Shown here one piece after another: positions 24,948 to 56,982 of a stretch of DNA of 64,000 nt (the first letter of the stretch is position 1; every line of letters starts with the position of its first letter). The stretch lies in assembly GCA_010356995.1 (NCBI GenBank), contig ML996698.1:245923-309922 (forward strand), given 5' to 3'. The position numbers and the translations under genes are program-made. The notes under the pieces are model-generated. The model ran no database searches and was not told where the DNA came from. It was given only the letters and a program-made list of their open reading frames with translations. This DNA is from Trichodelitschia bisporula. Lineage: Eukaryota.

Positions 24948-25383
24948 TTGGCGGAGACAGCCATGTGAGGAAGTGGGTTAGGGGGATGCTGATGGGGACG
25001 ACGGCAAGGGCATATACTCCGCTCCTTCTGACATGAAATAAAGTGTAGAGTACGCTAGGGGGATCCCGACGTCTGAAGCCACGGCGGGCAACGTCGGGCC
25101 GGACAACGTCGGGCCGGACATGCATGTGGCGGACGGCATACACTCCCGCCGTGAAGTGGTTGTAGCCGATCTAGTCATTGCGGCAGCATACACGCCACGT
25201 TTCTACATACGCCATCTCCCGTCCCACCGCTGGTATCCCGAAACCGACGTTAGCACCATTAGCATTATCGTTAACCCCCCCGCCTTCCCCAACTCCCGCT
25301 CTCAACGCCGAACACAAGAATCCCTCGGTATCAGACCCCCACCTAACCCACATCGCCCGGCCACCCACCCCTCCCCCCACACC

Positions 25384-27832
25384 CTACTGCCTCGCCCATC
25401 TTGCACTAGTAACCCGATAAAGCTCATCAACCCATATCCCCTCCTCGCCCTCCTCCGCCCCCGCCTCCGTCCTAAGCCCAAGCCTCCCCTCCGCCTCATC
25501 AACCGGCCTGCTCTCAACCGTCGTATCAGAGCNNNNNNNNNNNNNNNNNNNNNNNNNNNNNNNNNNNNNNNNNNNNNNNNNNNNNNNNNNNNNNNNNNNN
25601 NNNNNNNNNNNNNNNNNNNNNNNNNNNNNNNNNNNNNNNNNNNNNNNNNNNNNNNNNNNNNNNNNNNNNNNNNNNNNNNNNNNNNNNNNNNNNNNNNAAC
25701 CCCCCCAAACTCGCGATGTATCCTGCGGGCCAGGACATCATGTCCCCCCGCGCCCCGTCCCACGCGCTGAAACGCCATAAATATCCCAAGCGGCTTATAC
25801 ACCAACTCTGCCCTGTGCACCCCCGCCCCATGCACATCCGGAATAACACAAAACGCATAAACATCCCTCGTGCCCCCCCACACATCCCTCACCCTAACCG
25901 GCCTCCCGCAAAACACCGCGTTGGAAAACCAGCTCTCCCCCACCATCTCCCGCATCCCCCTCACCGCGCCCAGTATCTCAGTCCGAAACCCGTCGGCCGC
26001 GGGGCTGCTCCCCCGCCCTCCCAGCGCGGCTTCAAGAGCTATGAGACTCATCCCGTCCAGCCGCGCCATCTCCCGCTCTTGCCACTGCGCCAGCGGGCCG
26101 CCCCTGAGCTGCACGCTGGGTAATTCGGCTGGGCGTTCTGCCCGCACGAGCACGTCCCACCCCTCCTTTCCCCGTACTGGTCTCAGCGCCGCGCGCAGCA
26201 CAAACGCCGCGATCAGCGTGGGCGCGGGCGCAGGCGCCGCAGGCGGCGTGGCGTACGTCGCGCAGTAGCCCCGGAGACTCGCCAGCGTCGCGGCCATAGT
26301 CGGCGCGGGCACACGCGTCGCACGCGCAATAATATCGCAAACCTGCGCCGGCGTCGCGAAGCGGTACCCCGCGGACTGGAGCTTCGACGCTTCGGCGCGG
26401 GAGCAGGGGCGGGTGAGGAAGAGCAGCTGCCCGCGGCCCATGAAGGGGGTTGGGTCAGTGTCGGGGGTGGAAGGGGGGTCGTGGGCGGTGCCTTGCGGGC
26501 AGGATTCGAGATCGGAAGAGGAGGGGGAAGAGGGCCGGGTGCCCTTTGGGGGTTTGGGGGGCGGTGGGGGGGTGGTGCGCCCGGTGGTTAGGACGTCGTT
26601 GTAGAGGACGCCGAGGGAGGGGAGGGGGAGTTGGAGCTGTTGTGCTAGTGCGGATGCGGCGACGCAGAAGTGCGCGCGGAAGACGAGGCTGTAGCTTTCG
26701 CCCCGTCCACCCTTCGCGCGGTCCTCGTCCGGACTCGTAGGGCGCGCGGCGCGGCGCAGATGTGCGGCCATGGAGGGGAGCAGGTCGGCGACGCCCGCCC
26801 AATTGAAGCTCACGCGAAAAAGCCAGTGAAACACCGGATGTGCGGGGTTAAACTCGTCCGCAAAGCTGCGGGTGTTGAAGTGATCCGTGACCTTCTGTGC
26901 CGGCAGCAAGCCCTCATGCGTAACCAGCAACCGCCCATCCGGATCGAAAGTCGCAACCGCGAGGACGACGTGTTGCGCGCGGTCGGCGAGGAGGCGTTTG
27001 CGCCGCTGGGTGAGGAGAACGAAGGAGAGGCAGACGGCGCAGGAGAGGAGGGAGATGACGATGGCGACGATGAGGGTGGAGTTGCGCGCTGCTTCGGAGT
27101 GCGTGTGTTGCGCGGTTACGAGCCTGTATTTTGTGCCGACGCTTGCGACCCAGTGCATGCCGCTTACGGCGCCGGCGAGCAGGCAAGCGCAGACTACGCG
27201 GCGGGGGAGGGAGTTGATCCATTTCTCCTTGAAGTAGAAGAAGAGCATGAGGGCGGTGACGGAGGCGCAGATCGCGATCGCGGCGGCCCCAACCACGTAG
27301 CCGACTGGGTTGTAGAGCTTGTAATTCGTGATGCCGAAGTTGCCGACGTAGTGCATGCCCGTGATGGCGAGGCCGGCGATGACGCCCGCGAAGACCAACG
27401 AGGGAAGGAAGAGCGCGCGGCCGGGCTGCCGCAGCTCCACGGTGGTGAAGCCGACGAAGAGGAAGATTACAGGGAGGAAGACGGAGAGCACGGTGTAGCC
27501 TGGGTTGTAGTAGAGTTGGAGACCGTGAGACCCGTCGCCGAGGACGATGGCGCGGTTGCCGACGAAGTGCATGCACCAGATGGCGACGAGGCCGAAGGAG
27601 ACGGAGATGGCGAATTGCTGTAGGCTATGCGCGTATCCGGGTTAGCAAGGCTTCAAGTGGAGTGGTCGCAGCCGACTTACACGTTCACCCATCGCTTGCC
27701 CTCTCGTCTTCGGTGGAGGAGTTCGATGGTTGTGACAGCGCCGACGAGGCTGACGAAGTAGGAGGCGACTATAATCCCAGAGTTGAAGTGGAAAGGCACC
27801 TCGTCGCCCGGCTGGTATTCGTGTTGCGCCAT
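25384..27832 (-). CDS. Fungal MHYT-domain membrane sensor protein (one intron at about 27620-27680; interrupted by an assembly gap)
   Basis: ASYFVSLVGAVTTIELL, AIWCMHFVGNRAI, GMHYVGNFGI, SGMHWVA, LADRAQHVVLA, FNPAHPVFHWLFRVS. After the gap the coding-like frame reads ...GIWVDELYRVTSARWARQ* with the stop at 25384-25386. Confidence 0.85.
25533..25697. other. Assembly gap (165 N)
   Basis: Run of n. Confidence 1.
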
Positions 27833-49681: not shown

Positions 49682-50943
49682 ATGTTGAAGCTCATGGCCC
49701 GCACGGCCAAGGCGCAAAAAACAGCCAAAAAGCTCAAAGAGGCACAGCAAAAGACGACCCGACATCTCAAGGAAAAAGAAGCGCGAGACCACCTACGGCT
49801 CAAGCAGAAAGTGCTGGTAGAGAACATGAAGGCGGCGCGCATCGCGCGCCGCGAGGACTACGAACTAGGTCCCCTGGCGCCGAACCGGCACGCCGGCGAG
49901 CAAGGCGAAAAGTACGGGACTGCGGCTGGGCAGCTGCTGCAGTATTACAAGCTGCCACGGAATGAGCTGGAGCGCGCGAAGAAGAGGAGGGGGGAGAATG
50001 AGTTCAGGGTTAATGATCGGGTTGTTGTGCTCAGGGGACGGGAGAGGGGAAAGATTGGGACAGTGTTCGAGGTGCAAGACGAGACGATGAAGATTTTGGG
50101 GGTTAATCACGTATGTGGGACTGGTATGTATGGGCTACATGCTGATGACGGCAGGTTGAGATGCATGTCCCCGAGTGGATGCGCAAGGCCGAGAGCTCGA
50201 CTGCCCCGGTACGGTCCATGTCCGCGCCCGTCCCCCTATCAGACGTCCGCCTCGTCTACCCCGTTGCGGGACCGGATGGAAAGGATCGGGAGGTGATCGT
50301 GGCGGCCATGGACTTCCGCTGGCGCCAAATCCCGGGTACACAAGAAAAGAAGCGCCGAATCCCAGGCACACAAGAAAAGGACTACTCAGTGCCACACAAA
50401 GGCGACCTCCTCGCCCTAGACGACCCCTCCGCCGAAGAAAACCCCCTCATCACGCGCTTCACCCCGGCGCCAGGCTACAAGTGGGAAAAGGTCCGCTATA
50501 TCAAAGGCCAAGCCGTGGAAATCGTAACCGTGAAGCCAGCGGACGAGGACGTGGACGAGCCATACACCGACTCGGACACACTCCGTATCCAGACAGAGAA
50601 GGAAACCTTCTTGCCGGCGCTGACGCAGCCACCTATGCCACCTGAGGTCATCGACGAGTTGCGCGGCAAGTACAGCGATTACCGCGATCGCCATGAGCCG
50701 GAGTATATTGCGAAGAAGGAGGAGATTGATGAAGGGAGGGAGCGTTTGAAGCGGTCGAACGTTTTGAGGATGATGACGCCGCATCGCGAGTTTTCGATCA
50801 GATCACGCATGGCTGTGCAGGCGTATAGGAAGAGGAGGGCGCCTGATGTCAGCGTGCTGGCTGCTATTGGCGAGCATATGAGCAGGAGTAAGTCGCTGAA
50901 ACTTTCGTCGCCGAAGGCTGTGAGCCCCGAGGCGGCCCCGTAG
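49682..50943 (+). CDS. MRPL40: Mitochondrial ribosomal protein uL24m (YmL40-like, KOW motif), one intron
   Basis: REDYELGPLAP, KOW motif FRVNDRVVVLRGRERGKIGTV, SDVRLVYP, PPMPPEVIDELRGKYS. Confidence 0.85.
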
Positions 50944-51743: not shown

Positions 51744-54700
51744 TCACACTCCCCACGCGCCCGGCACAATCCCCAGCAACGACCCCGCCTCAGGCGCAGC
51801 CGGCGCCCCGGTAGGGGCTGCAACTCGCCTAACCTTCAACAGCGTCGTCGGCACCGAATGCACCTTACCCAGGGGCACAGCGGTCGATACCGCAGTGGGG
51901 ACCTCATACGAGGGCGCGCTCGGGACCGCGGTCGGCACTTCTTGCGATGGCGCCGAGGCCTTTGGGACGCCAGCACGACGCGCATGCGGCGCAGAGCTGT
52001 TGACAGGAAGCGCCTTGTACGCCTCGCCGACGATAACAGATGGGTCGTGCCGGCGGACCTTGTCCGAAGGAAGCAACGCCGCGACCTCAGCCGGGGGCTC
52101 GGGAGCTTCGGGGAGATCCTGGCGCTTCTCGACAGTAGAGTCATCGTCCTCGTCCTCCTCGACGGTGGAGTCATCGTCCTCGTCCTCGTCATCGTCCTCC
52201 TCGACGGTGGAGTCATCGTCTGGGGACTCGTCCTGGTCCTGGCGTTTCTCGAAGGTGAAGTCCTCGTCTGAGGACTCGTCCTCGACGTCGCGATCCACCA
52301 ACGCGCCCAGGCCGGAGAAGATGGTGCCGAGAATATGATCCGGCTCCTCGACAACCGCATCCGTGTCGAGCTTCGTCGCACCCGTGTTGAGGAGGTCGTC
52401 TGAGGCCTCGTCATCGACATCGCGGTTCACCAACGCTCCTAGGCCGGCAAACACAGTCCCTAGGACGTGGTTCGGTTCCTCGACAACCGCATCCGTGTCG
52501 AGGCTCGACGCGCCCGTGTTGACGAGGTCGTCCGAGTCCGAGTCTTTGCCGCGCCGCTCAAGCGCATCAAACTCAAAACCCTCCGCATCCTCCACCAGGT
52601 CGTCCACGTCACCAACGCTCACGCTCTCGCTATCAACGTCGGGCTCCACGCCCTCCAAAACAGTGACCGTGGCATCGAGGTCCGCATTCGCAACGCTGCT
52701 GTCCGCATCCGACTCCGTCTCGTTCTTCGACGCGAACTCCTCGCCGCGGCGGTCCACGCCCTTAGCCAGCGGCTCAGTGGCTTCGGAAACAGTCCGCCCG
52801 GCGCCGGAAAAGGTGCTCGAGGCGGAACCGATGCTGAAACCGCTGTGCTCGACGTTGCGGTCGACCAGCTTGCCATCCCCGGAGAAAGTGGTGCCGGCGA
52901 TGTTGTTCGGCTGCTCGATCGCTTTGTCGGTGTTGACGTTGCTGCCGTCAGTTTTGGCGAGGCCGGATTTGGAGTCCGAGGAGCTGTTGTCGCGGCGGTC
53001 GAGGGAGGGGATTTCGGGAGCATCGGCAGTGGGGAGGTCATCGGCGGTTGGGATGCCAGTTGCGGAGTCGGGGGAGGCAGCGTCGTCGGCCGAAGGAAGG
53101 TCGTCAGCAGAGGGCAAGTCATCGGCGGAAGGCGCATCGTCAGCGGAGGGCAAGTCATCAGCAGAGAGCGCATCGACATCATCCAACTCCTGGCGGCGGT
53201 TGAGCCCAGGCACCTTGTCGTTCACCTTATTCTCCACGCCTTGTGTCTTGTCATCGTCCGTCTTGTCGCTGATCTTGTTCTCGAGATGGCTGACCGTGCT
53301 GGTGACACCGTCGCGGCGGACAAAGGCATGCGGCTTCACCGGAAGCCCGCTGATCGGGTTGCGCTCCTCCTCAGGCGCCGCACCGTACTGCTGCGCGGAG
53401 CGACGCTTGGAATCGCTGCCCTTAACCAGCGCGCCCTGCGGGTTTTGGCTCGGCTCCGTGTTCGCACCCGTAAGGTCGAGGTAGTCGTTCGTGTTCCCCG
53501 CGGCATTGCCCTCGGTCGGAATGTACAGCTTCTTGCACGCATCCTTGTGGTCGGACGGAATCTTGACGTCGATCTTCTCGGGCGCTTCGATGAATGTCGC
53601 GGTAAGGCCCTCGATTACGTGCCACTCGATATGGCAGTGGATGAGCTGGATACCGGGGTTGTTGGCGCGGAAGCGGAACACGACCCAGCCGCCTGCACGA
53701 ACACCGGCCACGTCGCGCTTCATCGGGACCTGGGGAATGTTGGTGCCGTCGTAGCGCGCGCCGGAGCTGAGGACCGCGGCGTCGGAGCGCGAGACCACCT
53801 GGAAGTGGTGGCCGTGGAGATGCCATGGGTGGCCGGAGGTGTCGAAGTTGTTGAGCACGACTTCGACGACGTCGTTGTACTTGAGGACGAAGGGGTTGCT
53901 GTTTACGCCGTAGACCTTGGGGTTGGAGGAGAGGTTGCCGGCGGAGAGGGCGGTGTACAGGGTCGGGACCTTTTGGTCGATGTACGTGATGTTGTTGATG
54001 ACAGCGCGAGGCAGGCCGTTGATCTTGCTGAAGCCGAAATCCATGACGATTTGCGTGTCGACCTTTTCGAGGATCTTCTCGCCGTCGAAGGGCTTGATCG
54101 TGAAGTCGTCGATGGGCGGCATGATGCTGCCGACCAGAGTGGGTGGGTCGCGCGCTTCAGTGGTCTCGTTCTTCGCGTACAGGAGCGCACCGTGGGCGAC
54201 GGGTGGGCCCTTGTAGGCATCGGGGTTCGCGAACATGGACGTGTCGACCATAGCCGCGATGTCGAAGTTCTGGGCAGTCGAGTTCTGCGCCGTGATAAGG
54301 ACGTCATAGCGCTGAGCAGCACCGACATAAAGCGTTTTCGCGACGGTCTTCTCAGTGTACTCGCCATCCAAAGAAATGATGGTCATGTCATGGCCCGCGA
54401 AGTTGACGAAGAAAGAAGGGAAAGCACCGACGTTGAGAATGCGGAAAAGATACGTCTTGCCGGGCTTCATGGTGTAGTTCGTGCTTTTGCCGTCGTTCAT
54501 CAGGATGCTGTCGGGGATGGGGATGTCGCCGTTGGTGTTGGATGTGGATTGCAATTCCTTGATGAGTTGAGGCATTTGCTTGTGGTACCAGTCTGAGAGC
54601 ACGAGGTTGTACTCTTCGTCCCAGTCATACGGCGGCTTCGTGTCCTTGACAATGAGCGGCGCGCGGAGACCATCGGGGTACTGAGCATTATGCGAATCTG

Positions 54701-55097
54701 TTCATCAGCCCTGTCCCACACCCCCAAACAAGCTCAACTCACGATACCAGTACGTCCCCGCCTTACTCGCTGTAAACGAATACGTAAAAACATTCCCCGG
54801 CGGAATCGGGCACTGAGTAACCGCAACGGGACCATCCATCTCCGCAGTCCCGTTCTGCCACAGACCGTGCCAGTGCAGACTCGTCGTCTCGTTGCCGAGC
54901 TTGTTGGTCACCTGCACGTTGACTTTCTCGCCGACCGTCGCCTCGAGCACGGGCGGCGGCCACTTGCCGTTGATGCCAATGACGGGCCGGGTGAAGCCGT
55001 CTGGTGCCGCGGAGGTCCATGTTGTGTCCCAGAGGTAGGTTTTTGCGGCGGCGGAGTGGAGAAGGCCCAGACCCAGGAAGAGGGCTGGTTTTATCAT
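51744..55097 (-). CDS. Secreted multicopper oxidase (Fet3/Abr1-like) with a long acidic C-terminal extension rich in dibasic sites; one intron at about 54678-54741
   Basis: Signal peptide [18 protein letters not shown]; all four Cu-binding motifs present: [17 protein letters not shown] and HCHIEWH. Confidence 0.93.
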
Positions 55098-56982
55098 TAT
55101 GGATTAAGTAGAAAGAATAGGAAGAATGAGTGACTGGAATGAATGACTGAGAAGGATGGAAGAGGGGGGAGAAGGAGGGACAGACAAAAACGAGTGTGGG
55201 TGGGTTGATTGGGGACATATCTTGGGGGAGGCTGCTGGGAGGGTATTTGTATGTCCCCTCTGCTTCGCGGAGCTAATACCGATCTACGGAGGGAGTGGGT
55301 GGCGGGCGTGAGGGTGGAGCGCACGGCGACGGTGCCTGCGTTGGAGTGAGGCCCTTGACGTTGAGGGGACTGGGCATCGTGGCACCCAGCGTTACCAAGA
55401 TCAAGCCACCGGCGATATATGCCTTTGTGTGAGGGGGAGAATGCACCTGTATGGGGACAGGGCATTTCTGAAGGCCTTGGCTGCTTCTCACGGGCGATGG
55501 TGGTGGTGGTGGGAGTGAGACATGATAGAACCTGTGGTCGCGGTCGAACCAATTGGAGGCGTGGGTGGTGGGCGTAAGCAAATGATGGCGCAGATGAAGA
55601 TGGGGAGGTGGAGAGATGGGTTTGGTGATTTGATATCAAAACATATCGTCAGCTTAACGCGTAGACTCGATCTGTTTCCCTTCATCAGCAAGATGGAACG
55701 AATGCCATTCTTTACTCAACATCAATCCCAAAGACAACGCATCCCAAATCCGCACCAGCAGCTCCATTGCCCTCCAAAAATCCATAGTCCACCAAATCCA
55801 AAGTGAAGCAAAGCAATTCCCTAAGACACGATCAGTGCCGATCAGCAGGGAGTGCGATGTCGATCACCGGGGACACTACCGGGCCGCATTAGAGAAGCCT
55901 TGGAGCTAGCGCCACCGCTCCACCCGCATCCATCGTGGCGCCCACCCCCCAAGCCAATTAGCTCCATCGACGCCGAGCCTCCGCTGTCCAGATGCAGAAA
56001 TCCACTGTAAGACCGTTGATCACGACTTGTTTTCTCCTGTGGGATGAGACATACGACGGTATGGATCTGGGTGGAGTATTTGGCAAAGAAAACGAGGAGA
56101 AAAGAGAAAAGAATTTGCAGAATAATGGAAAAGACGGCATCAATTCCCCACCTGCGTCAAGAAGTTCGACAGCATCAACAAATCCAGGTTCGGCGCCTTC
56201 GGCATCGCCCGCCAACCGTCAGGAATCGGCTAGGACCCTTCAAATCCTGCCGAGAGCCGAGAGCCCGCCGAGATTTGGAAACGGCGTGTGGCTTTCGATG
56301 TGGAGCCGTGACCGCTGACAGTTGGCGGCTGAGGCGGCAGGCGGGCTGAGTCTCCGGGTGCGGGTTGCAGAATTGCAATTGCAATAGATACGGGAGGAAG
56401 ATCGGTGTTCAGGCCGCCGATATCCGCTTCGTATGGCTGTGTTGCGGATAGGACATGCTGATGCCGGAGGTCTTCGTCGACAGAGTCAGGGGAGATTTGG
56501 AGCATGCGGGTGGACATCGTGGGGACGATCGTGTATGCTTTTGGCCGTTGCTCCTTTTGCGTGTCTTACTGCTTGGTGTTCGTGATGCGATGGCTGTTGA
56601 CGTCATTTTCTGAGATGGAGGGGATGCTGAACGTGTAGGTCGTGATGGCGGATTGGTAAAATCTACGCAAGGCACGGCGCATGCGCTGACGGAGATATCT
56701 CGAGTGAGCATCCTCTACCAAGGTTGTGGCGATACTCAGAGAGGAGAATTTGGTGAGCAGTCATTCTATAAAAGCCCCGTCTTGTCTGCCGACGGAGAGA
56801 TCTAAACCTGATGTCTCTCCCCTTCCTAACGACGTGATGATACTCCGGGAGGAATTCTTGAACTACCGTTCCCACCGCCAAAAAGACCGATCTCAACTCT
56901 GATTCCATGAAACGTAACCTATCGCTGACATACCCATTAATCCTCCCACGCATCTCGCCATTAAACTCCAAATGCACCATCC

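Follow-up and report, generated by a model that had tools for sequence, protein, structure and literature searches.

An oxidase gene of Trichodelitschia bisporula that continues into a long tail of predicted Kex2-released peptides

A minus-strand gene in a 64,000-nucleotide (nt) stretch of the fungus Trichodelitschia bisporula (NCBI GenBank assembly GCA_010356995.1, contig ML996698.1, positions 245,923 to 309,922; hereafter the window) encodes a multicopper oxidase that is followed by an orphan tail rich in dibasic sites. An earlier reading made from the letters alone (the sequence-only reading) had described an oxidase open reading frame (ORF) running on into a tail of about 550 amino acids (aa) and had proposed one precursor that releases a soluble oxidase plus about a dozen acidic peptides. 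The ORF concerned (51744-54701, minus strand, 985 open codons) turned out to be the 3' half of a longer fungal gene, in which the tail indeed extends over 557 aa from aa 546. The gene is arranged as follows, in window positions.

55097-51744, minus strand: whole gene with one 45-nt intron and a product of 1102 aa
54743..55097, minus strand: exon 1, with signal peptide and first cupredoxin domain (Pfam Cu-oxidase_3, E 7e-32; RNA contigs)
55041..55097, minus strand: predicted signal peptide, aa 1-19 (sequence inspection; relatives have similar N-termini)
54875-54864, minus strand: HWHG copper motif, in exon 1
54698..54742, minus strand: predicted 45-nt GT..AG intron that interrupts the WYHSH copper motif, absent from the contigs of both runs
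54697-51744, minus strand: exon 2
53427..55040, minus strand: three-domain multicopper oxidase of the Fet3/Abr1 group without membrane helix (Pfam, alignment with Fet3 1zpu, tree, motif positions)
53400..53435, minus strand: GAL junction and first dibasic site SKRR, the putative ancestral release site (KR/RR in 5 of the 6 nearest relatives)
51744..53417, minus strand: orphan tail, mostly without confident structure and with no homologue found in the searches described below

RNA contigs from two runs skip the predicted intron precisely and span 54697 to 51705/51712 with 0 gaps and 0 differing letters. Both runs derive from one sample, possibly the genome's own source, and do not represent an independent strain; they are not labelled as RNA on record and were taken as such because their contigs skip two GT..AG introns. 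As the spliced contigs run unbroken through oxidase and tail, the tail lies in frame on the same mRNA, and the transcript neither ends nor is spliced before it, as expected for the proposed single precursor. The contigs also reach well upstream of the start codon (window 55097-55500 and beyond, one of them measuring 6,618 nt), which indicates either a long leader or a merger with the transcript of the adjoining gene.

The oxidase part comprises the Pfam domains Cu-oxidase_3, Cu-oxidase and Cu-oxidase_2 with all four copper-binding motifs and an axial Leu, and the closest solved structure is yeast Fet3 (1zpu, E 3e-92). A hydropathy scan revealed no C-terminal membrane helix of the kind that Fet3 in iron uptake has: the peak 19-aa hydropathy past the oxidase is 0.92, compared with 2.0-2.9 in anchored Fet3s, in agreement with the soluble enzyme suggested earlier. 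Inspection of the Fet3 iron-site equivalents, read by hand from the 1zpu alignment and numbered as in PMC9880977, showed that D409 is kept and D283 is missing, and that Ile, next to an Asp, stands in place of E185 and Arg in place of Y354. The only FTR1 locus found in the genome lies on contig C21 and adjoins a separate, anchored Fet3; as Ftr1 is paired with that protein, the window gene does not encode the iron-uptake oxidase, and its product is not a Fet3 ferroxidase. HaLF, which has D409 only and Arg at Y354, exhibits laccase but no ferroxidase activity, while some enzymes oxidise iron despite an incomplete set of iron-site residues (PMC9880977). Judged from its residues, the oxidase is thus likely to be laccase-like and to act not on Fe(II) but on substrates of the phenolic or pigment type, although iron oxidation by such incomplete-set enzymes makes this a likelihood and not a proof.

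For comparison, 156 relatives were collected, three of which were dropped because they lacked the anchor motif; the remainder divide into 101 anchored proteins and 52 classed as lacking an anchor, although one of the latter, P0154, does have an anchor and three others seem to be truncated or distant. A FastTree phylogeny was built from 75 cores out of 151 usable ones, namely the first 25 anchored cores and every one of the 50 classed as anchor-less. In it, the window gene groups with P0001-P0006 (support 1.0), whose named members come from Tothia, Venturia, Aulographum and Rhizodiscina. This subclade is nested in a larger clade of anchor-less proteins (support 1.0), together with Penicillium proteins that carry the name 'Multicopper oxidase abr1' in their source; the node joining the subclade to its neighbours has weak support (0.64), and Aspergillus fumigatus Abr1 itself lies outside the tree. 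Abr1 and BrnA form a cluster with the fungal ferroxidases (PMC3200161), Abr1 affects conidial pigment (PMC13153316) and, in A. fumigatus, builds up in the conidial wall (PMC5120144). The window protein resembles this type in its Fet3-like core, the lack of a membrane helix and of Ftr1 pairing, and a tail that starts at a GA(L/M) junction, but it belongs to a separate subclade and is not accompanied by a melanin gene among the scanned window ORFs. With yeast Fet3 it shares all copper motifs, the axial Leu and D409, whereas the membrane helix, an adjoining Ftr1, E185 and D283 are lacking. Two more anchor-less Fet3-like paralogues with short basic ends lie elsewhere in the genome (C3:1276219-1277516 and C4:303054-304461).

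The 11 dibasic sites reported by the sequence-only reading were all recovered in the order given, together with three LV(D/N)R sites. About two KR/RR sites would be expected by chance in a tail of this composition: overlapping [KR]R matches number 12, compared with 2.07 +/- 1.36 in shuffled tails, and 0 of 10,000 shuffles reached 12. Dibasic sites hold 20 of the 25 Arg residues of the tail (mean 3.0 and maximum 12 in 5,000 shuffles) and LV(D/N)R sites three more, while in the oxidase part a single Arg of 12 belongs to a dibasic pair. This excess of sites is not due to chance. At 7 of the 11 sites P4 is occupied by L, V, I or F (binomial p = 0.002), which fits the Kex2 motif described in PMC8528282; the P4 residue of the first site, SKRR, is not aliphatic. 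The genome contains one kexin-type gene with catalytic and P domains, and with this and the motif fit the assignment as Kex2-type sites stands, so that cleavage of the precursor by Kex2 appears very likely.

Overall, the tail comprises 128 Asp and Glu residues (23%), 3 Tyr, 1 Trp and 8 His, with neither Cys nor Met. The scarcity of Tyr and Trp had been recognised before; the description as very D/E-rich is correct for the total, but the acidity is confined to the middle of the tail, where aa 621-977 carry a net charge of -84. Kex1 trims basic ends, and pieces were defined here by predicted cuts at KR/RR with trimmed basic ends, which gives 11 tail pieces of 22-101 aa. Four of them are strongly acidic (net -20 to -25), whereas the other seven range from -4 to +1, so that the proposed dozen acidic peptides are acidic only in part. 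No hydrophobic end of the glycosylphosphatidylinositol (GPI) type was seen at the C-terminus of the tail. The following features were assigned.

Ending at approximately 53315, 53195, 52994, 52748, 52553, 52244, 52124, 52052, 51977 and 51827, minus strand: ten later dibasic sites
52859, 52424 and 52292, minus strand: LV(D/N)R sites
53076..53165, minus strand: five 6-aa SADD(L/A)(P/A) units in a 65-aa piece of net charge -20
52857..52991, minus strand: repeat copy A, 45 aa, the most diverged, with terminal LVDR (z 13.7 and 14.9 to copies B and C)
52422..52550, minus strand: repeat copy B, 43 aa, with acidic N-terminal half, hydrophobic segment and LVNR (132-nt tandem repeat; low-confidence helix)
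52290..52421, minus strand: repeat copy C, 44 aa, with terminal LVDR (dN/dS against copy B)
52122..52241, minus strand: polyacidic piece, 38 aa, net charge -25, from recent 42-nt duplications
51747..52121, minus strand: four near-neutral P/A/V-rich terminal pieces of 22, 23, 48 and 26 aa

Comparison of all pairs of pieces revealed three clearly related units of ~43 aa (z 13.7-28.5), each of which starts just past an Arg site and closes with LV(D/N)R, and one extra short acidic match (z 4.6). Copies B and C differ at 25 of 129 nt, distributed over codon positions 1, 2 and 3 as 7, 1 and 17, which corresponds to a ratio of nonsynonymous to synonymous divergence (dN/dS) of 0.17 (dS 0.69, dN 0.12, Fisher p 1e-4). 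The nine amino acid differences compare with 15.7 expected, and only 5 of 3,741 neutral simulations gave a value as low; copy A yields dN/dS values of 0.23-0.29 against B and C over 30 codons. The three repeats are thus under purifying selection, and at least these three units are probably functional. They contain no Tyr, Trp or Cys and share a conserved hydrophobic core; the two most hydrophobic segments of the tail map to copies B and C, as do most helices of the single-sequence tail model, including its only tandem helices. An amphipathic character was assigned to all three repeats. These selected repeats, as well as the variability of tails at the same junction throughout the clade, are features beyond those recognised in the sequence-only reading.

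In the six nearest relatives (564-596 aa), the pieces past the junction measure 19-77 aa and are not conserved in sequence, yet a KR/RR site lies within 45 aa of the junction in five of the six (clade support 1.0), and the Aulographum piece has three. Such a site occurs in the first 50 aa in 13 of 25 anchor-less short-tailed proteins, compared with 1 of 101 anchored ones in the first 25 aa. By contrast, the 24 truly anchor-less long-tailed relatives (tails of 205-401 aa) have no dibasic site; their Penicillium members are P/Q/A- and His-rich, and the tails of P0149 and P0153 are S/T-rich with a GPI-like end. None of 79 metagenome loci showed an anchor-less open tail with more than two dibasic sites. 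In 12 of 22 loci checked, some of them redundant, the Gly codon of the junction holds a phase-2 intron that could be spliced to a last exon of 17-46 aa, and six of these 12 have KR/RR in the last exon.

L011:1738-1787 (own-genome contig C3): phase-2 intron in the junction Gly codon
L026, L029, L047, L049, L050, L069, L072, L074, L095, L097, L098 (metagenome loci): the same intron

The C3 paralogue has this intron and a KRR-bearing end, and the window gene has no intron at the junction; L040, a locus of the anchored type, carries the same intron. With the intron at this place, a separate last exon often encodes the variable tail. From these comparisons, the oxidase/tail junction is a variable slot, the first dibasic site is ancestral, and the long tail is a lineage-specific growth of a short ancestral piece. 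Two further groups of relatives are worth recording. The Penicillium and other proteins P0126-P0152 and P0155 are Abr1-like with tails of 200-400 aa, in which a P/Q/A-rich stalk is followed by conserved repeats containing His, Asp and Trp that may bind copper or anchor the enzyme; general literature searches yielded no published description of them. P0124, P0125, P0131 and P0140 (from Podospora, Cadophora, Acephala and Rhynchosporium) place an anchor-less Fet3-like oxidase behind a large N-terminal region of ~500 unannotated aa with S/T linkers and, in three of the four, a WSC domain; as this fusion recurs, it is probably no gene-model error.

A laccase C-peptide of about 10-15 aa is removed on maturation, a short piece compared with the 550 aa and 11 sites found here. 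Melanocarpus and Myceliophthora laccases lose a C-terminal extension on their way through the secretory pathway, and a new Kex2 site at a laccase C-tail raised activity in yeast (PMC4323517); these enzymes, however, represent another oxidase subfamily with a DSGL-type plug end, which is present in the other laccases of this genome. The peptide string is closest in design to Rep1 and Hum3 of Ustilago maydis, in which amphipathic repeats of 31-55 aa lie between Kex2 sites (PMC4617103; see also PMC3133707). Rep1-type repellents release amphipathic peptides that form surface-active amyloid fibrils. Hum3 has repeats joined to a folded hydrophobin domain (PMC4617103) and comes nearest to a single precursor that holds both peptides and a domain. 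Here, in contrast, the folded part is an enzyme and is placed first, and only 3 of ~14 pieces are mutual repeats; the tail searches detected no sequence similarity to Rep1/Hum3. By analogy, the design would work like a processed-C-tail laccase joined to a Rep1/Hum3-like string of peptides.

The protein also resembles Kex2-processed repeat proteins (KEPs; PMC6339444, PMC7329392) in its signal peptide, lack of a membrane helix, many KR/RR sites and internal repeats, but differs from them by its catalytic domain. By the cut-offs given in PMC6339444, it is not a KEP. The signal peptide, identified by inspection, and the absence of a membrane helix agree with that definition, as does the number of KR/RR fragments (11 tail pieces plus the oxidase, with at least four called for). 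In place of at least three similar KR/RR fragments, however, three copies lie in two fragments, which would become three if LV(D/N)R were cut (similarity was assessed by pairwise alignment and not by the FIMO pipeline of that study), and repeats make up 11.7% of the protein in place of at least 15%.

Searches for other oxidases or stand-alone proteins with the same tail, which the sequence-only reading had considered, remained empty. No tail homologue was found among 7,999 candidates of 541-1722 aa, a range that leaves out shorter stand-alone proteins, or among 1.84 billion representatives, the Atlas gave no usable match, and none of 255 pattern matches in metagenome contigs could be confirmed. 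In its own genome, the gene retrieved itself and one low-complexity match on C17, in a frame that does not resemble the gene at that place. As low-complexity queries search poorly, these blanks carry little weight. A Pfam 'Senescence' match on the tail (E 0.04, below the cut-off) was dismissed as noise, and the single-sequence model of the tail was too weak to serve as a structure-search query. P0121-P0123, long proteins with at least four dibasic sites, were rejected as parallels, being anchored Fet3s whose models run into PP2C or ankyrin domains. No oxidase doubling as a multi-peptide precursor was found in the literature covered, which leaves out most subscription journals, and the supplements of the KEP surveys PMC6339444 and PMC7329392 contained no match to Cu-oxidase, multicopper, laccase or the repeat motif, although these files may be cut or incomplete and may lack a listing for that reason.

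Taken together, one gene probably delivers an enzyme and about a dozen peptides. We tentatively favour the reading, which we give close to an even chance, that an oxidase and co-secreted, surface-acting peptides arise from one Kex2-cut precursor; the surface role of the peptides, taken by itself, is possible but somewhat doubtful. According to this proposal, the secreted precursor would be cut by kexin (Kex2) in the late Golgi, where the first cut, at the ancestral site, would free a ~530-aa anchor-less oxidase of the Fet3/Abr1 type. The short ancestral C-terminal piece would have expanded by internal duplication into 11-14 peptides that are co-secreted 1:1 with the enzyme. The repeats would most likely be amphipathic, repellent-like and surface-associating, and together with the polyacidic pieces could form or mark the wall layer in which the oxidase works, thereby positioning the enzyme, a task that seems to fall to uncut tails rich in P/Q or S/T elsewhere in the clade. 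A more far-reaching version, in which a surface-assembling kit of amphipathic and polyacidic peptides builds the wall layer or a scaffold for polymer deposition by the enzyme, the repeats are freed at the non-canonical LV(D/N)R sites and the C-terminal slot, often a separate last exon, is a route to new peptide cargo, seems unlikely in its entirety.

Several observations weigh against the favoured reading. The long tail is shared by no relative and is known from one genome only; of its dibasic sites, the first recurs in five of the six nearest relatives and the others are absent from them, so that the conservation expected of orthologues holds for that site alone, and the four closest metagenome relatives (L022-L025), which end in a basic cluster without KR/RR, count against strict conservation even there. 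Asp at P3 is unfavourable for Kex2, and Asp or Asn is not listed among the best P2 residues (PMC8528282); Asp occupies P3 in 2 of the 11 dibasic sites, and the LV(D/N)R repeat ends carry Asp or Asn at P2, outside the preferred residues, so that the repeats may not be released singly. The low internal dN/dS denotes constraint at the protein level and no specific function, the tail model is of low confidence throughout (mean pLDDT, a score of local model confidence, 42.6), and the hydrophobic 14-aa repeat cores have modest helical moments (0.28-0.36). Moreover, no polyketide synthase or other melanin gene was found among the 21 other window ORFs scanned against Pfam, which leaves a role in pigment as only a lead, drawn by analogy with Abr1, and scytalone dehydratase is encoded on another contig, C6.

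Other explanations of the tail fare differently against the same evidence. That the tail is a separate gene or non-coding sequence, added through loss of a stop codon or through a join made in assembly, is largely refuted and has almost no probability left: the tail occurs in no relative and the RNA stems from one sample that may be the genome's source, but the contigs show 0 differences across the junction, the GC content at third codon positions is 0.77 in the tail versus 0.81 in the oxidase, the repeats exhibit codon-position bias, and the tail, without Met or signal peptide, is not a separate gene. Somewhat unlikely, in our view, is an inflated, disposable propeptide: the tail would be removed and broken down, would serve as an acidic, disordered spacer with at most a part in folding or secretion, and would keep its many sites for efficient clearance. 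This reading would account for an orphan tail of heterogeneous pieces modelled mostly without structure, for the short, unconserved piece of the ancestral state and for a kinship with the C-tail trimming of ascomycete laccases (PMC4323517); yet the repeats, with dN/dS values of 0.17-0.29 and a conserved hydrophobic core, do not look disposable, and a single site would free the enzyme, whereas this tail roughly doubles the length of the precursor. An uncut or partly cut tether that keeps the oxidase in the wall, as may be the case for the Penicillium Abr1-like tails with their 0 dibasic sites, would agree with the 24 anchor-less relatives that carry long tails without a dibasic site at the same junction and with the lack of an aliphatic P4 at the first site. 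We consider this improbable, in that the tails of those relatives avoid KR/RR, whereas 11 sites hold most of the Arg here, and the first site is common to short-tailed relatives.

The metal-binding and mineral-deposition roles raised by the sequence-only reading found no backing beyond composition. A multicopper oxidase needs four copper ions, and polyacidic pieces of net -20 to -25, four in number, within a segment of net -84 could bind Cu, Fe or Ca for metal loading of the enzyme or for mineral nucleation; the chances of this are slim, given a tail without Cys or Met and with only 8 His, an oxidase that keeps only one of Fet3's three iron ligands, and a most acidic block that is a recent duplication without conservation. 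A scenario in which the oxidase modifies the peptides of the tail to which it is fused, in the manner of peptides made on ribosomes and modified after translation (RiPPs), is more improbable still. Enzyme and peptides would be made together, and dikaritins use Kex2-cut precursors and oxidases (PMC7329392), but the repeats lack Tyr, Trp and Cys, the nearest match to UstYa (DUF3328) is ~100 kb off at C12:400471, and a tail of this kind is lacking in the oxidase's close relatives. The protein is therefore not a dikaritin precursor, and the suggestion that the peptides are oxidase substrates, with only 3 Tyr and 1 Trp in the whole tail, could not be sustained.

The gene is surrounded mostly by housekeeping functions. 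A mitochondrial ribosomal uL24m-like gene (49682-50943, plus strand) has a spliced 44-nt intron (50111-50154) and an RNA contig that extends to 51301, and a fungal MHYT-repeat protein (PF03707), of a family mostly known from bacterial sensors, is encoded at 25305-27641 (minus strand). The other window ORFs encode a leucine-rich repeat protein, DENN, Tag1, ALG11, Oxa1-like and DUF3984 proteins, mevalonate diphosphate decarboxylase, cytochrome c heme lyase, PLAC8, Ima1, a steroid 5-alpha reductase-like protein and Tcp11.

The interpretation offered by the sequence-only reading is thus partly supported, and the gene represents a real and unusual architecture, so far in one genome only, that is assembled from known parts: precursors of Kex2-released peptides are known, as are laccases with processed tails, and the searches made here found no oxidase that is a multi-peptide precursor as well. 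Provided that the peptides are stable, the gene would allow two questions to be put to a compact test, namely how secreted oxidases of the pigment type come to their place in the wall and whether LV(D/N)R sites are cut by kexin. The wider pattern into which it falls is that of anchor-less Fet3-like oxidases carrying very different tails at one and the same junction.

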